Origin: Bacillota bacterium
GTDB taxonomy: Bacteria > Bacillota > Clostridia > Peptostreptococcales > Anaerovoracaceae
Reading direction: 5' to 3'
Assembly: GCA_017443515.1 (NCBI GenBank)
Contig: JAFRXM010000024.1
Span: forward strand, 12,031-76,030
Length of the DNA: 64,000 nucleotides
The notes beneath the pieces were generated by a model. The model worked only from the letters and a program-made list of their open reading frames with translations, was not told the DNA's origin and did not search any database. Shown here piece by piece: positions 58,130 through 64,000 of the stretch. Numbering within the stretch: the stretch's first letter is position 1; every line of letters starts with the position of its first letter. A program made the position numbers and the translations under genes.

Positions 58130-59080
58130 ATGAGTTTCGAAGTAAATTACGATGTTACCTGTCCGGTATTCAACATCCAGACCTACAGCATTCACGACGG
58201 CCCCGGCATCCGCACAACAGTCTTCGTAAAAGGCTGCCCGCTGCGCTGCCTGTGGTGCGCAAACCCCGAATCCAACCTGGCAAAGCCTCAGCTTATGACT
58301 TACTCCAGCAAGTGCACAGGCTGCGGACAGTGCCTGCCCAAGTGCCCCAAGGGCGCCATCTCCATAGGCCCCTACGGCGAAGGCGAGAGCCTCAAATATA
58401 TCGCTATCACAGACCGCACCAAGTGCGTGGACTGCGGCGCCTGCGTAAAGGTCTGCCCGGCTGAAGCCCGCGAGATCGCAGGAAAGACCATGACAGTCCG
58501 CGAAGTCATCGATAAAGTCAAGAAGGACAAGCTCTTCTACGACGGTTCCGGCGGCGGCATGACGGTCTCCGGCGGCGAGCCTCTTGCTCACCCGGATTTC
58601 GTGGCCAACCTCATGGCAGCGGCTCACGCAGAAGGCATCACCACCTGCATCGAGACCAGTTCGTTCGGATCCCGCGAGGCAGTCGACAAGATCTACCCGC
58701 ACGTAGACCTGGCCCTTCTGGACGTAAAGCACATGGACAACACCACCCACGAAAAGCTCACCGGCGTGCCCAACACCTACATCCTTGAGAACATCAGGCA
58801 CATCGCGCTGGATCTTAAGGTGCCCGTCATCATCCGCGTCCCGACCATGCCCGGCTATAACGACAGCCCGGAGAACATAATCGCGACAGCCAAGTTTGCC
58901 CAGACCCTGGGCGATAACGTCCTGGTGAACCTGCTGCCCGCCCACAAGCTCGGCGAAAGCAAGAACGAGAGCCTCGGCATCGCAAACAGGTGCACCATCA
59001 CAGTGCCAACCGACGAATACATGCAGAGCCTCAAGAAGCTGGTGGAAGAAGCCGGCTCCCCCTGCAAGATCGGCGGCTAA
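58130..59080 (+). CDS. glycyl-radical enzyme activating protein (long, two-ferredoxin-motif type)
   Basis: IHDGPGIRTTVFVKGCPLRCLWCANPE, plus CTGCGQCLPKCP and CVDCGACVKVCP, plus VSGGEPL. Confidence 0.85.
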   Translation: MSFEVNYDVTCPVFNIQTYSIHDGPGIRTTVFVKGCPLRCLWCANPESNLAKPQLMTYSSKCTGCGQCLPKCPKGAISIGPYGEGESLKYIAITDRTKCVDCGACVKVCPAEAREIAGKTMTVREVIDKVKKDKLFYDGSGGGMTVSGGEPLAHPDFVANLMAAAHAEGITTCIETSSFGSREAVDKIYPHVDLALLDVKHMDNTTHEKLTGVPNTYILENIRHIALDLKVPVIIRVPTMPGYNDSPENIIATAKFAQTLGDNVLVNLLPAHKLGESKNESLGIANRCTITVPTDEYMQSLKKLVEEAGSPCKIGG

Positions 59081-59125
59081 GCCCGGACTAAAAAGCCTCC
59101 GGCTCAACTGAAAGGAGAACAGACA

Positions 59126-59809
59126 ATGGATAAGAAAGCTTTAATAGAAGAGATCGTAAAGAAAGAATGGCCGATGTTCCACAACGTCAACGGCGAAGAC
59201 CGCGTAGACTGCCAGGAAGACCCGACCACCTTCTACAACATGCGCACAGCCCAGTTCGATGTCTGGAACGAAGACGCGCTCGAAAGCTACAACAAGGATC
59301 TTGACGCCGCCATCGAGGCAGGCCGCAGCCTTGTAAAGGAAAAGTACATCTGGATGATGGAACACACCGATCCTAAGGGCTTTGAGGCATTCAAGGGCCT
59401 CCTGCCGGAAGTTTCCGAAAAGACGAACGCTCTCGTGGCCGACATCTGGAAGATCATGCTTGAGCAGACCGAAGAGCTCCGCAAGACCTACCCGCTTCTG
59501 GCTCTGGGCGGTCGCCCGCTGCACGCTTCCGAAGAGAAGGAATGGGCCTCCATCGAGACCTACCAGACCAGCGAGCTGCGCACCTTCTCCGAAGCCACAC
59601 TGGAAAAGCTCCTCGCCCACATCAAGGCCATGAAGGAAGCCGGAGAAGACTTCGTCTACAAGATCCAGGAAAACTCCGTCACCTGCCTTGGCTACAAGGA
59701 CATGAAGGAAGCTGAGATCGCCATGATGGGCCAGCTCATGAACGAGATGGGCATCACCGTCGAGGCCGACTGCCCCTCCTGCATGAAGGGATTCGACGAC
59801 GCAGAATAA
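59126..59809 (+). CDS. DUF4125-like protein, function unknown
   Basis: 227 aa, acidic and helical. MDKKALIEEIVKKEWPMFHNVNGEDRVDCQEDPTTF... The family is assigned from memory. Confidence 0.4.
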   Translation: MDKKALIEEIVKKEWPMFHNVNGEDRVDCQEDPTTFYNMRTAQFDVWNEDALESYNKDLDAAIEAGRSLVKEKYIWMMEHTDPKGFEAFKGLLPEVSEKTNALVADIWKIMLEQTEELRKTYPLLALGGRPLHASEEKEWASIETYQTSELRTFSEATLEKLLAHIKAMKEAGEDFVYKIQENSVTCLGYKDMKEAEIAMMGQLMNEMGITVEADCPSCMKGFDDAE

Positions 59810-59810
59810 C

Positions 59811-59837
59811 GGTGGAGAGGGACGGTTCTCCTCCACC
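59811..59837 (+). repeat. loop-conserved hairpin repeat, GGTGGAG-stem class (copy M)
   Basis: GGTGGAGAGGGACGGTTCTCCTCCACC. It starts 1 nt after the stop of the plus-strand gene. Confidence 0.9.
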
Positions 59838-59859
59838 AAACATCCAATCATACCAAATC

Positions 59860-59892
59860 AAAATGGCTCGGATCCTTGTCCGGGCCATTTTT
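59860..59892. terminator. bidirectional intrinsic terminator bracketed by repeats M and N
   Basis: AAAATGGCTCGGA-TCCTTG-TCCGGGCCATTTTT. Confidence 0.65.
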
Positions 59893-59919
59893 GGTGGAGG
59901 AGAACCGTCCCTCTCCACC
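59893..59919 (-). repeat. loop-conserved hairpin repeat, GGTGGAG-stem class (copy N)
   Basis: GGTGGAGGAGAACCGTCCCTCTCCACC. It is the exact reverse complement of M. It ends 3 nt before the stop of the minus-strand gene. Confidence 0.9.
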
Positions 59920-59922
59920 GCC

Positions 59923-61329
59923 CTACCAGGCGGCTTTTGTTATTTCTGCGTCCTGCCAGGTGCTTGTATAATCGTCTCCCAGCCAGTACATATCTGCCCC
60001 CATTATACTGCTTGAAAGCCTGGTATAATACTTCAGGCCATCCGCGGTAAACACCGCGAGACAAAAGCCGTCATTATACGCCATATGATTCACATCGTCC
60101 TTCCTTTCAGCAGGATACTCATAATTGCGGCTGATCACCGCAGCACGTCCTTTTTCGAAGGCAACATACTGGATCACACCCTCGATCCTCATTCTGATCT
60201 GCGGATCGATACTGTATGCAGGGAAGGTCTCCATCGCGTATCTTTCGCCTTCCTGGTAAATGCAGTACAGTGCTTTCGACGGGCTGTACACCGCCATACA
60301 GCTGTCAGACGGACGGAACTCAAGATGTCTGAGTTCGTTTTGCATATCCACGCTGAACCCCTGCGTATAACCGTCCGAGTACCTCAATACAGTCACGCGA
60401 CCGGTCGCGCTGTCGCCGTCCGAAGACCACACTGCCATGGCGCGGCCGCTGTCGAACTCGCCTGCGCTGTAGATCATTTCACCGTCTTTTGTTTCATACA
60501 CAAGCTCTGCCTTATCCACAAGCGGAGCATACTCTATGCGCTGTGAACTGATGAATTCCGGCTCATCCAGCTTTCCGAAAGGCACCCTCCAGATCCCGTT
60601 TTTCAGGGAGGTCCTGTAGTACGACGGAACATTGACCATCAGGTAGAAGTTTCCGTCTCGGTATATGCTTTTCATGCTGATATAGGGGTCATCGATCATG
60701 GTCTTGGGATCGCCGTTCAGATAAAAGCTTGTCTGGCCGGAACTGCTGCTTTCCGATATCTTCTCCACTTTAAGGCGTACCCACAGCTCGTCAGGCACTT
60801 CAAGTCTGAAAAGTTCCGAGAACTTCCCGTAAAGGCTGCTGTCATCGCCGCTCTCAAGATGTCCGTTGTAACCATTGACATGCCATTGGACACGCGGATA
60901 GATGACAGAAACGACATCCTTAAGGCGGAAGTCTCTGACGGCTGATTCTCCCGGTTGGAGACTTGCTACGACAGGTGACTCAAAATCGTAGAACTGCAGA
61001 GTCGACTCGGGATCCGCGTACACACTGAACTCACAGGCAGCCTCGTACTGCTGCTCTGTCTGGTTGAAATATTCGCTCTTCGCGCCGCAATCTGCTCCGT
61101 CGGCGCCGAAAACCACAGTTGCGTTCCACCCGAGCCTGTTGGCGGTCATCTTCGTGTATTCGACCTTCAGGCCTTCTGCGGCCGCAGGGTCGCCGAAGCT
61201 GTCGTAAAGGCTGAAACTGACATCATCAGCTGCCTTAAGAATGCTGCGCGAACCGGATACGACTCCGGCAATGGCTGCTGCCGCAAGCACTATGCTGAGT
61301 ATCAGCGCTATATGCTTCTTACCACTCAT
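59923..61329 (-). CDS. N-terminally anchored extracytoplasmic protein, unknown function (module copy 1)
   Basis: MSGKKHIALILSIVLAAAAIAGV... then about 440 aa with no recognised motif. It is a distant paralog of 62061-63569. I chose the start that gives the same 11-nt overlap with the upstream gene in both modules. Confidence 0.5.
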   Translation of the reverse strand: MSGKKHIALILSIVLAAAAIAGVVSGSRSILKAADDVSFSLYDSFGDPAAAEGLKVEYTKMTANRLGWNATVVFGADGADCGAKSEYFNQTEQQYEAACEFSVYADPESTLQFYDFESPVVASLQPGESAVRDFRLKDVVSVIYPRVQWHVNGYNGHLESGDDSSLYGKFSELFRLEVPDELWVRLKVEKISESSSSGQTSFYLNGDPKTMIDDPYISMKSIYRDGNFYLMVNVPSYYRTSLKNGIWRVPFGKLDEPEFISSQRIEYAPLVDKAELVYETKDGEMIYSAGEFDSGRAMAVWSSDGDSATGRVTVLRYSDGYTQGFSVDMQNELRHLEFRPSDSCMAVYSPSKALYCIYQEGERYAMETFPAYSIDPQIRMRIEGVIQYVAFEKGRAAVISRNYEYPAERKDDVNHMAYNDGFCLAVFTADGLKYYTRLSSSIMGADMYWLGDDYTSTWQDAEITKAAW

Positions 61330-62059
61330 TTCCGGCCTCCTCCGCTTCTTCATGTTCTGTTATGATGATGTTAGACCTCAACACCGAAATGAAGCCGAGC
61401 ACGAACACAGCAATGGCTGAAGCGATCACAACATGCAGGGTGCGCCCATAGGTATTCACTGCCGAGACCATGATCCCGACATATACTATCACTATGGTCA
61501 CAGACAGCCCGGCGAAAACAGAATACCTGCGTCTTACGCTGCCACTGGCTGCACCTATCGAAAGAAGCACCGTCAGCAGTATATGGCTCACCGCCATCGA
61601 CGCGTCCTTCAGCGGTATGATATACAGAAGCGCACTTTTTGCGCAAAGCTCCGTCATCACGCCCTGCGGGCTTACGGCAGATCCGGCCCGCGATGTGTAC
61701 ATGTGCGCTGCGATCAGCAGCGCCAGCACCTGAAAGCCCCAGAATATCAGGAACATCAGGATGTTGTGGATCACGTTCAGCCAGTATACCTTCTTTTCCG
61801 ACGTCTGCAGCATGCGCACCCTGTAGGAAAAGCCCGACCCCTTTGACGACGGTCCGAACAGCGCGAAATACAGCGCCGCGCATGCCGCAACGGATATGAA
61901 GAACAGCACGCTGCCCGCCGCGTAAAGGCTTGACGGCGCCTTTCTGAAATAAAGCGCCGAATACGCCGCCTCTGCAGCCAGCATCACCGCTGATATTATC
62001 AGCGCCCTGGGCAGATTGCGCTTCGAATAGTATTCAAGTACAGATAAAACTTGTTTCAT
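61319..62059 (-). CDS. six-helix integral membrane protein (ABC-2/lantibiotic-immunity-permease-like shape), module copy 1
   Basis: 246 aa. The MKQVLSVLEYYSKRNLPRALIISAVML N-terminus and about 6 TM segments resemble ABC-2 permeases. There is no ATPase in the window. Confidence 0.4.
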   Translation of the reverse strand: MKQVLSVLEYYSKRNLPRALIISAVMLAAEAAYSALYFRKAPSSLYAAGSVLFFISVAACAALYFALFGPSSKGSGFSYRVRMLQTSEKKVYWLNVIHNILMFLIFWGFQVLALLIAAHMYTSRAGSAVSPQGVMTELCAKSALLYIIPLKDASMAVSHILLTVLLSIGAASGSVRRRYSVFAGLSVTIVIVYVGIMVSAVNTYGRTLHVVIASAIAVFVLGFISVLRSNIIITEHEEAEEAGNEW

Positions 62060-62060
62060 C

Positions 62061-63569
62061 TCAGTTCCATCTCTGGTCTATCCAGTAACTGTCGTATGTC
62101 GAAGGATTCAATGTGTGGTCGTGTATGTGCGTGTAATACGCACCAGACGGATGTATATACGGATCATCCTTAAGGCTGCTGGTCCAGGCTCCGTAATACT
62201 GCAGGCCATCCTCTGTGTATACGGAGAGCCTGACTCCGCTGAAGCGGATCGCACCGTAGGGATCGTCGAGCTGCACTTTATAAAGCGGGCCTGCAACTGC
62301 CAGCCTTTTTCCATCAAAGGCCGCGCTCATGTATTCATACTGGCTGCTCATGTACTCATACTGGCCCTTGTCGAGTTCCAGGTCTTCCTCCGTCTCCGGG
62401 AAATCAAATGTATGACAGGTCCCGTCCGCAGCCCTTTGCACCACGATCCAGCGTTCGCCGGGTATGCGCAGAGCATTGTAGTCATTGTAGAAATGCACCT
62501 GCATGAAGGACAGATCCTGGCTTTCGTATTTCCCCGGGTCCGGATAAGTACCAAGTTCCAGCACCTGAAGATCGTTTGTCTCCGGGCCACCAAGAACATA
62601 TTCCTTCAAAGCGCCGTCCTTTGCTGTGATCACTGCCAGCGCCGCAGGGTCGCTCATCATGCTTCCTGCAAACACCTCCTCGCCTTCCTCAAAGGCGCAG
62701 ACCCTGACAGCCTTATTTATCATGGGGATCTCTTCGTGATCGACATCTTCCAAAGGAATGCGGTATATTCCCGGGCCGTCCGTCAGCTTGCAGCCCGCAA
62801 ATTCCGTCTGCATATATACATAGTATGCATCGCCGATCTTAGGCCCGCTGCAGACGACATCGCCTCTGTAGCCATAGCTGTTTATTCCTTCCCAGTTTTC
62901 AAAACGGAATGTCGCATCGTAGTCTGGGGTCCCGTTATTTCCGCTGCGGCTATACACGATCAGCCGTATGACCAAAGTCGCCCCTTTCTGCACCGGGATC
63001 TTAAGGAAGCTGTTTGCATCATCGTTCAGGCTGTCCAGCACTTTGTTCCAACTGTTGTTTTCATCCAAACGGGTCTTCGAATCCCTGGATATGCCGGAAA
63101 TAAAATCTCCGCTGTTACGCTCAGCCCATATGCTTAAGGGCACATATTCTGCGTATTCGGACAGATCTATTTTTAGCGTTTTCACATCCATGTCGTCCTG
63201 CGATGCAGCGGTGCTCTCCACAAGTTCGAGTATCTCCGGGATCTGAAGCACATCGGGATAGAGATACAGGCTGTCTCTGCGGGCAGTGTTTATATATTTT
63301 TGTCTGTAGCTGTGGCTTGTAGTGAACGTGGGGCCTGTCTCCCCGAAATGACCTGTAGTATCCCAGTAAAGGTCCGAACTGCTGGGGAGCTTCATCGTGA
63401 GCTTAAGGCCACTTGCGGCTGCCGGATCGCCGATGCTTTCGACCTGCGTAATTTCCACGGAGCTTGCCGGCTTTAAGACGATGCTGTTTGCAAACGCCGC
63501 TCCGATAATGGCGGCTATTGTAAGAATGACGAGCAGCAGAAGCGCAATGTGCCTTTTCTTAGTTTTCAT
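62061..63569 (-). CDS. N-terminally anchored extracytoplasmic protein, unknown function (module copy 2)
   Basis: MKTKKRHIALLLLVILTIAAIIGA... It shares GDPAAA.GLK near the anchor and DGL.YY....SS near the C-terminus with copy 1. Confidence 0.5.
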   Translation of the reverse strand: MKTKKRHIALLLLVILTIAAIIGAAFANSIVLKPASSVEITQVESIGDPAAASGLKLTMKLPSSSDLYWDTTGHFGETGPTFTTSHSYRQKYINTARRDSLYLYPDVLQIPEILELVESTAASQDDMDVKTLKIDLSEYAEYVPLSIWAERNSGDFISGISRDSKTRLDENNSWNKVLDSLNDDANSFLKIPVQKGATLVIRLIVYSRSGNNGTPDYDATFRFENWEGINSYGYRGDVVCSGPKIGDAYYVYMQTEFAGCKLTDGPGIYRIPLEDVDHEEIPMINKAVRVCAFEEGEEVFAGSMMSDPAALAVITAKDGALKEYVLGGPETNDLQVLELGTYPDPGKYESQDLSFMQVHFYNDYNALRIPGERWIVVQRAADGTCHTFDFPETEEDLELDKGQYEYMSSQYEYMSAAFDGKRLAVAGPLYKVQLDDPYGAIRFSGVRLSVYTEDGLQYYGAWTSSLKDDPYIHPSGAYYTHIHDHTLNPSTYDSYWIDQRWN

Positions 63570-64000
63570 ATGCCGCCTCCTTATTCTCATCCCTGTTGTT
63601 TGCGCGTTCGTGCTGGGCAAAGTACCCTATCCACGCAATGATCATCGCAAACGACGACAGGGCCAGCGCGTAGCTTCCGGCAAGAATGTAGAACTGCGTC
63701 CCAATGGTCAGCACGACTATGATTACCGCCGCAGCCGGGAAGCGCCTGTACATCCTTGCGAATCTGAAGCATGCCGAGCCTATCGAAAGGGACAGCAGCT
63801 CTGCCGCGCAGGTCACCCAGAAGAAGAACCTGTCGGTCGGAAGCATGGCCTGGCCGCCGTGCGCCTGTACAAGAAGGCTGAAGAAGCCCTGCGGCCCGAA
63901 GGTATACTCCGGCAGAGCCGTGCACTTTTTGGCAAGGTACAGGACCAGCATCTGCTGCACAGCCCAGGCGATGACATACACCATGATGTTCACGAATATG
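63559..64000 (-). CDS. integral membrane protein, module copy 2, N-terminus beyond the window
   Basis: It aligns with the C-terminal two thirds of 61319-62059 (VHNIMVYVIAWAVQQMLVL versus VIHNILMFLIFWGFQVLAL). The reading frame stays open to position 64000. Confidence 0.45.
   Translation of the reverse strand, partial: IFVNIMVYVIAWAVQQMLVLYLAKKCTALPEYTFGPQGFFSLLVQAHGGQAMLPTDRFFFWVTCAAELLSLSIGSACFRFARMYRRFPAAAVIIVVLTIGTQFYILAGSYALALSSFAMIIAWIGYFAQHERANNRDENKEAAYEN

Follow-up and report, generated by a model that had tools for sequence, protein, structure and literature searches.

A duplicated membrane protein-ectoprotein pair forms the distal, variable half of a seven-gene ABC operon in a Clostridia bacterium

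At the right-hand end of the window, a 64,000-nt stretch of a Bacillota bacterium genome (family Anaerovoracaceae; contig C67, positions 12031 to 76030, of a 1.94-Mb assembly with 73 contigs), two consecutive gene pairs lie on the minus strand, each encoding a membrane protein with six transmembrane segments (6-TM protein; mem) and a large, N-terminally anchored extracytoplasmic protein (ectoprotein; anch). Which system do these pairs serve, and what does their duplication mean? The original prediction, made from the window alone, had described a tandemly duplicated two-gene module that continues past the right edge. The sequence past that edge (C67:70031-90030, locus L002, in which a coordinate equals the window coordinate minus 58000) bears this out, as mem2 is completed at 64290 and is preceded upstream by genes for an ATP-binding cassette (ABC) ATPase, a protein with three transmembrane segments (3-TM protein; sTM), and a GntR-type regulator. 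The pairs are therefore part of an ABC operon, and the window region is its distal, variable half. By analogy with characterized systems, we consider it somewhat probable that the operon encodes an accessory, self-induced ABC machine for envelope defense or sensing, in which interchangeable propeller subunits set the specificity. The anatomical description of the operon is much firmer than this functional reading.

Organization of the operon

The operon comprises seven genes, encoding the GntR regulator, the 3-TM protein, and the ATPase, followed by the mem2-anch2 and mem1-anch1 pairs. The upstream pair is referred to as the "a" copy and the downstream pair as the "b" copy. The features are as follows, with window-equivalent coordinates beyond position 64000.

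59800-59930, minus strand, terminator region at the 3' end of the operon, from the RNA fold, directly after the anch1 stop
59923-61329, minus strand, anch1 ("b" copy), open reading frame (ORF) of 468 amino acids (aa) from an ATG preceded by a Shine-Dalgarno sequence
61319-62059, minus strand, mem1 ("b" copy), ORF of 246 aa, 6-TM protein
62061-63569, minus strand, anch2 ("a" copy), ORF of 502 aa, paralog of anch1
63559-64290 (L002 5559-6290), minus strand, mem2 ("a" copy), 243 aa when complete, crossing the window edge at 64000
64356-65081 (L002 6356-7081), minus strand, ABC ATPase of 241 aa, PF00005 match with an E value of 1.5e-20
65107-65601 or 65107-65649 (L002 7107-7601 or 7107-7649), minus strand, 3-TM protein (sTM), no family
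65588-66016 (L002 7588-8016), minus strand, YtrA-type GntR protein of 142 aa with a TTG start, Pfam GntR match with an E value of 3e-10
about 66064-66085 and about 66095-66115, predicted operator palindromes
66099-66127 (L002 8127-8099), operon strand, sigma-70 promoter with TTGACA, a 17-nt spacer, and TATAAT (12 of 12 positions)

All four ORFs of the two pairs were found where they had been predicted. In a hydropathy scan, mem1 has six TM segments and each anchored protein has a single N-terminal helix; TM4 of mem2 falls below the threshold and is assigned by homology. The GntR, sTM, and ATPase genes are chained by overlaps or short gaps, and 1 nt separates the anch2 stop from the mem1 start. 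The 11-nt overlap that had been reported between the mem stop and the anch start is present in both pairs, in the form ATG..TAA with GGAGG before each (ATGAGTGGTAA and ATGAAAACTAA). This overlap is kept in every long-type pair examined within the genus (L017, L018, L019, and L020, from genomes G019, G017, G008, and G002, respectively, and the locus of protein P0004), although the proteins of these pairs are no more than 30% identical, which argues for translational coupling of mem and anch. The next gene upstream of gntR lies outside the operon. At the 3' end, the terminator consists of an inner A-run, stem, and U-run that reads as bidirectional and sits inside a long inverted-repeat hairpin, and the 59800-59930 hairpin folds at −86.1 kcal/mol (z = −12.8 against shuffles). 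A DUF4125 gene convergent to the operon ends at 59809.

The two anchored proteins align end to end (alignment A1) at approximately 24 to 27% identity, with an insertion of about 22 residues in anch2, and BLASTP detects the relationship at the N terminus (E value of 1e-11, 41% over 75 aa) and in the C-terminal half (2e-4). In the full-length comparison, mem1 and mem2 are 34% identical over 193 aa (E value of 2e-24). These alignments indicate that anch1/anch2 and mem1/mem2 are true paralogs.

A recurrent five-component cassette

Relatives of the operon were retrieved through the ATPase, by use of its subfamily-specific peptides STGQ[QK]NQF and [ML]DEPFAGN, from species-representative genomes. 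This yielded 598 stretches, at least 548 of which encode a relative, and the best 80 of these matches were inspected (L017 to L096). Hidden Markov models for the five components, which recur in all 83 loci covered, classified the ORFs of these loci into the following arrangements.

GntR-mem-sTM-ATPase-anch, 51 of 83 loci
GntR-mem-sTM-ATPase followed by two to four tandem anch genes, 12 of 83 loci
The window order GntR-sTM-ATPase-mem-anch with a single pair, 4 of 83 loci
The window order with the mem-anch pair doubled, 3 of 83 loci (the window, L017, and L018)
Minor order variants, or loci cut by contig ends, the remainder

Every cassette that is complete on its contig has at least one anch gene, 15 loci have two to four, and the GntR, sTM, and ATPase genes are linked in every locus that no contig end truncates. 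Four tandem anch genes stand behind a single 6-TM gene in L033, L038, L053, and L057; thus, the ectoprotein can multiply without its membrane partner. The flanking genes are heterogeneous (124 Pfam families among 127 neighbors), with no recurrent partner gene in the tally, and the unit thus seems to consist of just these five genes. The genome of the window itself carries two further single-pair cassettes, at C46:7788-11085 (minus strand) and C13:1904-5231 (plus strand), each with a GntR gene, a small TM protein, an ATPase, a 6-TM protein, and an anchored protein of 330 aa that shares the N- and C-terminal motifs, which brings the genome to three motors and four ectoproteins.

The inspected loci belong mostly to Oscillospiraceae, Acutalibacteraceae, Lachnospiraceae, and unclassified Clostridia from the gut and rumen, and the cultured carriers include Flavonifractor porci P01024 and Flavonifractor sp. 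An82. The narrow ectoprotein profile A1 found the family in 12 of 20 genomes of the genus and in none of 41 other genomes of the family or order. A confinement to the window's genus, as this profile suggested, was rejected because the ATPase-anchored retrieval found the family widespread elsewhere. The broad profile A4 found members in the order (2 of 201 genomes) and in the class (3 of 400), the window's own genome included, and these counts are floors in that only first-look candidates were scored. Since the distribution is patchy and the neighbors are variable, the cassette is accessory, and it is concentrated in certain gut lineages. Window-order cassettes with ATPases 87% and anchored proteins 66% identical occur in L074 (Absicoccus sp., Erysipelotrichaceae) and L081 (a "Bacteroidaceae bacterium" metagenome-assembled genome), and this likeness despite different phylum labels points to horizontal transfer or mis-binned contigs. 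PADLOC returned no defense-system match for mem, sTM, or anch; its matches were generic P-loop ones (ATPase) and one weak helix-turn-helix match.

The ABC ATPase and the membrane proteins

The ATPase matches PF00005 at 74.6 bits (cutoff of 25), and it has an intact Walker A (GENGAGKTT), a Walker B with the catalytic Glu (ILMDEP), and an intact H-loop (STH). Its signature is LSTGQQNQ, of the subfamily form STGQ(Q/K)NQF, and its D-loop is AGND. The nearest solved relatives are the nucleotide-binding domains (NBDs) of ABCA1/3/4/7, Rv1218c, NosF, LptB, and PmtCD (type V/VI), and the best NCBIfam matches are LptB, GldA, PmtA/C, lantibiotic-protection, and DrrA subfamilies. No named NCBIfam equivalog cutoff is reached by the ATPase, with the best score being 102 bits against 240 (LptB) and each of the other scores being a third or less of its cutoff.

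The 6-TM proteins had been likened in size and N-terminal shape to ABC-2 or lantibiotic-immunity permeases, a likeness that profile comparison does not bear out. By hhalign, the 6-TM profile matches the ABC2_membrane and ABC2_membrane_3 profiles at 0.3% probability, whereas these two profiles, built from relatives' genomes, match each other at 99.3% as the positive control. No Pfam match was found for mem1 (E ≤ 1), full-length mem2 (E ≤ 0.01), or 56 family members, and the profile has no relative among PDB sequences at E ≤ 10. The comparison thus places the 6-TM protein outside the ABC-2 families at the profile level. The original prediction had named an ordinary ABC-2 exporter operon as one outcome that would refute it; the ABC operon is indeed there, but its ordinary ABC-2 or lantibiotic-immunity character is not. 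An R/K-rich loop after TM2 is conserved, with the consensus Y-T-L-R-R-L..SE in the 6-TM family (alignment A5). The 3-TM protein, for which there is no Pfam match, aligns to TM2-loop-TM3 of the 6-TM family (hhalign probability of 93.6%, E value of 2e-7), which indicates that it is a remote, half-size paralog of the 6-TM protein, and a Y-x-[LM]-R-R-L core in the loop is common to both. By the positive-inside rule, this loop is predicted to be cytoplasmic, and it could be a coupling element to the ATPase. Together with the anchored protein, the 6-TM and 3-TM proteins make three of the five cassette protein families that have no database family.

The anchored ectoprotein family

The large proteins had been described as having no recognized domain, and neither one received a Pfam or NCBIfam assignment. 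Among 60 family members, no Pfam family was found, no Pfam propeller repeat (PD40/TolB, WD40, NHL, PQQ, or sialidase classes) was detected, and no source database names any of them. A GH98 match in anch2 (E value of 0.0022), below the cutoff and present in 1 of the 60 members, was rejected as chance. The family is large: with clusters defined at 50% identity, an exhaustive profile search recovered 848 of them at E ≤ 1e-3, and 330 when the threshold was E ≤ 1e-10, and nearly all of the clustered proteins are 450 to 500 aa long and align end to end. Word-based searches with single proteins had given three to five relatives, and the reading of a tiny family was discarded on the result of the profile search.

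The AlphaFold2 model of anch1, based on an 88-sequence alignment, has a predicted local distance difference test score (pLDDT) of 90.6 and a predicted template modeling score of 0.87, and it consists of a helix at about residues 3 to 34 and an all-beta ectodomain with approximately 29 strands, a few short helices, and a C-terminal W. The model of anch2, based on eight sequences, has a pLDDT of 65, is all beta, and also matches propellers in Foldseek. Foldseek searches of the PDB and viral libraries returned only beta-propellers (E values of 1e-4 to 1e-5, probability of up to 1.0), including the propeller domains of prolyl oligopeptidase and oligopeptidase B, WD40 proteins, a seven-bladed lactonase-like protein, and methylamine dehydrogenase, with generic WD40 and propeller matches only in the viral fold library. 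The ectoprotein profile found one marginal TolB blade among PDB sequences (E value of 0.0025). Because the matches are propellers only, yet their template modeling scores (TM-scores) are 0.2 to 0.3, the models weakly suggest a propeller-like ectodomain at the fold-class level, with no close solved neighbor. The approximately 29 strands would fit seven four-stranded blades plus a closing strand.

The three motifs that had been picked out as common to the two copies (the N-terminal KK-HIAL helix, GDPAAAxGLK, and the C-terminal DGLxYY..SS) coincide with the best-conserved blocks of the whole family. These are the N-terminal KK and helix, the juxtamembrane GD-x-x-AA-x-GL (G46 is invariant, at 100%, and W68 is conserved at 92%), of which GDPAAAEGLK is the anch1 version, and a last-blade block, GL-x-Y-x-G-x-Y-x-SSL, followed by the terminal W. 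No conserved set of catalytic-looking residues was seen in the family alignment.

Evolution and exchange of the pair

In the anch tree, the window-type loci form one clade, which is the window's own genus. Within it, the downstream "b" copies (window anch1, P0007, P0008, L017_b, and L018_b) group together with support of 91/80, and the upstream "a" copies (window anch2, P0002 to P0005, L017_a, and L018_a) group together with support of 90/92. Because the copies cluster by position across three species, the duplication is old, is earlier than these species, and has been retained since. A recent in situ tandem duplication was ruled out, given that the copies are approximately 24 to 32% identical and group by position across species. 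The tandem duplication that had been proposed is thus an old one, and the pair acts as an exchangeable cassette. In GCA_016648615.1, a syntenic relative that shares the downstream DUF4125, radical-SAM, and TPR genes with the window, only the "a" pair is present, and its P0004 is 65% identical to anch2.

The components differ widely in their rates of change. Between the window and L017, the ATPase is 76% and the GntR protein 72% identical, compared with 28% for sTM and approximately 30% and 29% for mem and anch, respectively, and among all locus pairs whose ATPases share at least 85% identity, anch drops to about 40 to 55% where the ATPase value is about 86%. These identities indicate that the cytoplasmic parts are conserved and that the membrane and outer parts evolve severalfold faster. 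L017 and L018 are highly similar in the ATPase (99.6%), GntR protein (98.5%), sTM (90%), mem_b (90%), and anch_b (85%) and dissimilar in mem_a (38%) and anch_a (41%). Their DNA is approximately 91% identical through gntR, sTM, the ATPase gene, and the first ~60 nt of mem_a; the identity is then lost, and it is back at 91% about 3 nt past the anch_a stop. Because the identity breaks and resumes this sharply around mem_a-anch_a, it follows that the "a" pair was replaced as a unit between the two loci. The first ~75 to 90 nt of mem_a and mem_b are 77 to 78% identical to each other, and this shared 5' end could be a recombination handle.

Regulation

The GntR protein is 142 aa long here and 125 to 130 aa in its paralogs, with the Pfam GntR match at residues 16 to 76, and the proteins are 48 to 71% identical across cassettes. 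These features identify it as a predicted short, YtrA-subfamily GntR repressor with no full effector domain. Two 22-bp palindromes, GTGTAyTA-N6-TAATACAC, are found at each of the genome's three cassettes, with the same double operator at C46 and C13; one palindrome overlaps the −10 box, and the other lies just downstream. The exact palindrome core is upstream of gntR in 30 of 77 loci. A genome-wide scan with at most one mismatch gave seven matches, five of which are in the three cassette promoters. The other two, at C61:45926 (perfect) and C72:16565 (one mismatch, beside a TTGACG promoter-like site), have no cassette genes near them and are probably chance matches rather than regulon members. 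The promoter layout, with its predicted operators, fits autorepression by the GntR protein, a mode of control that was demonstrated experimentally for MbrR (bioRxiv 10.64898/2026.02.18.706565) and PmtR (PMC5080381).

Comparison with known systems

The closest parallel in layout is MbrR-MbrAB of Streptococcus salivarius, in which a YtrA repressor is controlled by its ABC partner, an extruder, in bacteriocin defense; YtrA-ABC synteny is reported to be widespread in Bacillota (bioRxiv 10.64898/2026.02.18.706565). Both systems have a short YtrA-type GntR gene first in an operon with an ABC ATPase and palindromic operators at the promoter, and both are self-contained, with the autoregulation known for Mbr being predicted for the cassette. 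Mbr consists of one ATPase and one membrane protein, whereas the cassette adds a 3-TM half-paralog and one to four propeller ectoproteins. Its 6-TM protein is in no described family, and sequestration of the repressor by the ATPase is only assumed for the cassette, by analogy. In PmtR-PmtABCD of Staphylococcus aureus, substrate peptides relieve repression by PmtR (PMC5080381). There, too, a GntR-type repressor governs an adjacent ABC exporter, and the cassette ATPase has PmtA and PmtC among its best relatives in NCBIfam and the PDB. However, Pmt has two ATPases and two ABC-2 permeases with no extracytoplasmic partner, and the cassette ATPase scores 95 bits against a Pmt equivalog cutoff of 350. 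The ytrGABCDEF operon of Bacillus subtilis, the first ABC operon placed under a YtrA regulator, responds to cell-envelope antibiotics by induction (PMC8060467, PMC12772383). Like the cassette, it encodes a small membrane protein, YtrG, and a subunit whose extracellular domain is large, YtrF, but it has two ATPases, its membrane families differ, the extracellular domain is built into YtrF, which is an FtsX-type permease, rather than being a separate anchored propeller, and the operon is not known to undergo module exchange.

Beyond the YtrA-linked systems, NosDFY and LptB2FGC resemble the cassette in their NBDs, which are close to its ATPase, and in combining a 6-TM subunit with a large, beta-structured external protein. 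They are housekeeping machines of diderms with a beta-helix or beta-jellyroll partner and a known cargo (Cu/S or lipopolysaccharide [LPS]), whereas the cassette, from monoderm Clostridia, is accessory and fast evolving and has a propeller-like partner; the resemblance is one of analogy only. LanFEG with LanI also offers an ATPase, two paralogous 6-TM proteins of ~250 aa, and an extracytoplasmic accessory protein, but the ABC-2 permease similarity is absent from the cassette, and the accessory proteins differ in size, fold, and anchoring.

Proposed function and alternative explanations

In the machine that we favor, the 6-TM protein and the 3-TM half-paralog would together make up a membrane domain that carries an ATPase dimer, and the basic cytoplasmic Y-x-[LM]-R-R-L loops of both could couple to the ATPase. 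The N-terminal helix and the invariant juxtamembrane GD-x-x-AA-x-GL would attach the ectoprotein to this domain, so that the propeller, which evolves fast, would face outward and recognize the ligand. Antimicrobial peptides or competitors' bacteriocins are the most plausible ligands. ATP hydrolysis would remove or expel the envelope-active ligand; alternatively, ligand occupancy would be signaled inward. Engagement of the transporter may relieve the repressor, by analogy with the sequestration of MbrR by MbrA and the binding of phenol-soluble modulins by PmtR, and the operon would thereby induce itself. The 6-TM/ectoprotein pair would be a specificity module, which is present twice here, has multiplied at other loci, or has been replaced whole, and the operon would therefore offer two specificities on one motor, in addition to the two single-pair cassettes elsewhere in the genome. 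A bolder version, which we put forward tentatively and consider less likely than not, is that the cassette represents a previously undescribed class of ABC machine, in which a non-ABC-2 membrane domain of 6-TM and 3-TM proteins contributes one coupling loop each, a single-helix-anchored propeller receptor is swapped with or without its 6-TM partner, and capture is read out as transcription via ATPase-dependent sequestration of the YtrA-type repressor. If true, a single operon would give gut Clostridia a modular sensor-effector against extracellular threats.

Several points weigh against the favored machine. The contacts between the ectoprotein and the 6-TM protein, between the loops and the ATPase, and between the repressor and the ATPase are all ones that we infer, and for the last of these the one line of evidence is that the GntR protein and the C-terminal tail of the ATPase are co-conserved. 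In sequence, the 6-TM protein is unlike every known ABC membrane domain, and its putative role as the membrane domain of the transporter follows from gene linkage only. The ATPase subfamily is without the canonical Q-loop Gln: the position aligns to G/C/N77, and "CPQHN" of ABCA1 aligns to A-T-G/C/N-E-H within the invariant TxEHSFFP of the cassette ATPases, so the coupling could be atypical. The propeller assignment is at the fold-class level only, the TM-scores being low even for the confident model. The N-terminal helix of the ectoprotein might be a cleaved signal peptide rather than an anchor, and anch2 has a candidate signal-peptidase site in its AFA-N motif. No bacteriocin, immunity, or cell wall genes are consistently adjacent in the flanking-gene tally. 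Finally, fast evolution and exchange would equally fit bacteriocins, phages, host immunity, or relaxed constraint as the driving force.

Four alternatives compete with an envelope-defense or sensing machine. A mechanotransmission machine like FtsEX, NosDFY, or LolCDE, in which ATP would drive the external propeller to activate or scaffold a cell wall hydrolase or to hand over a component without transport, draws on NosF and LptB being among the closest solved NBDs. In NosDFY and Lpt, an ABC motor works with an extracytoplasmic partner that is rich in beta structure, LptC being held by a single TM helix, and a propeller with no conserved catalytic-looking constellation would suit binding or scaffolding. 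Envelope machines with a housekeeping role are, however, normally conserved and single copy, whereas the cassette is absent from most relatives, varies between one and four ectoprotein genes, and has been exchanged between operons that are almost identical, and no partner enzyme is consistently encoded nearby; this explanation is unlikely. Slightly less likely still is an ordinary ABC-2 or LanFEG-type exporter for lantibiotic or bacitracin immunity, with the ATPase as LanF, the 6-TM proteins as LanE and LanG, and the anchored proteins as LanI-like. It would account for the lantibiotic-protection, PmtA, and DrrA subfamilies among the best ATPase matches, for the two paralogous 6-TM proteins of ~245 aa, and for the extracytoplasmic accessory proteins. 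All of these ATPase matches are far below the curated cutoffs, though, and the 6-TM profile and its 56 members stay apart from the ABC-2 permeases. About 70 of the 83 cassettes have one 6-TM gene and a conserved 3-TM gene, unlike the LanEG layout; the ectoproteins, at 330 to 600 aa, all beta, and without a lipobox, are unlike the small LanI lipoproteins; and no lantibiotic biosynthesis genes were found in the operon surroundings or the flanking-gene tally.

The fast divergence of the exposed parts, the replacement of one pair with sharp breakpoints, the patchy, accessory-like distribution, and the hairpin repeats that flank the operon could also be read as signs of a variable surface-protein or anti-phage locus, in which phages or host antibodies would exert selection on propellers that act as decoys, receptor masks, or exclusion proteins, and in which the ABC part would insert these proteins or turn them over. 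We hold this to be quite improbable, given that there are no defense-system model matches beyond generic ATPase ones, that no mobile-element genes are attached, and that such tight, self-contained YtrA control is typical of stress or efflux modules. The least likely of the four, and very doubtful, is an uptake or sensing system for a variable gut nutrient such as a glycan or peptide, in which the propellers would be interchangeable capture subunits that share one motor, like multiple binding proteins or the S-components of energy-coupling factor transporters, and the YtrA-type protein would report flux. Several different ectoproteins can indeed share one ATPase and 6-TM set, the hosts are gut and rumen anaerobes, and propellers act as glycan sensors in other gut bacteria. 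The NBD clade (ABCA, DrrA, LptB, NosF, and Pmt) nevertheless comprises exporters and extractors rather than importers, no catabolic genes lie in or beside the cassettes, and every YtrA-linked ABC system characterized to date acts in efflux or stress.

Modules that join a YtrA-type repressor to an ABC system abound in Gram-positive bacteria, and some have only recently been shown to be combined sensors and extruders of antimicrobial peptides. To this theme, the cassette brings three protein families with no database family, including the ectoprotein family of 848 clusters, and it provides a natural experiment in which the outer parts have been doubled, multiplied, and swapped around a motor and a repressor that hardly changed. 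Should the propellers prove to be specificity subunits, the cassette would show gut anaerobes diversifying their recognition of competitor peptides, phages, or host factors on one ATP-driven core, and it would add a new membrane-domain family to ABC-transporter biology. The two cultured Flavonifractor carriers make the system directly testable.

Neighboring genes and flanking repeats

Downstream of the operon and convergent to it, the window encodes at 58130-59809 a radical-SAM activase of the glycyl-radical type (Radical_SAM plus Fer4) and the DUF4125 protein. Elsewhere, an MprF-like LPG_synthase_C gene and an acetyltransferase gene lie just downstream of the cassette in L016 (5390-7046), and a divergent pair encoding an extracytoplasmic function sigma factor and a DUF4367 protein lies upstream in L013 (3488-5456); neither arrangement recurs across loci, and both hint at envelope stress. 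The 59800-59930 hairpin is made of a 27-mer pair, and related hairpin repeats bracket the whole operon in L017 (5877-5959 and 12093-12247) and in L018.

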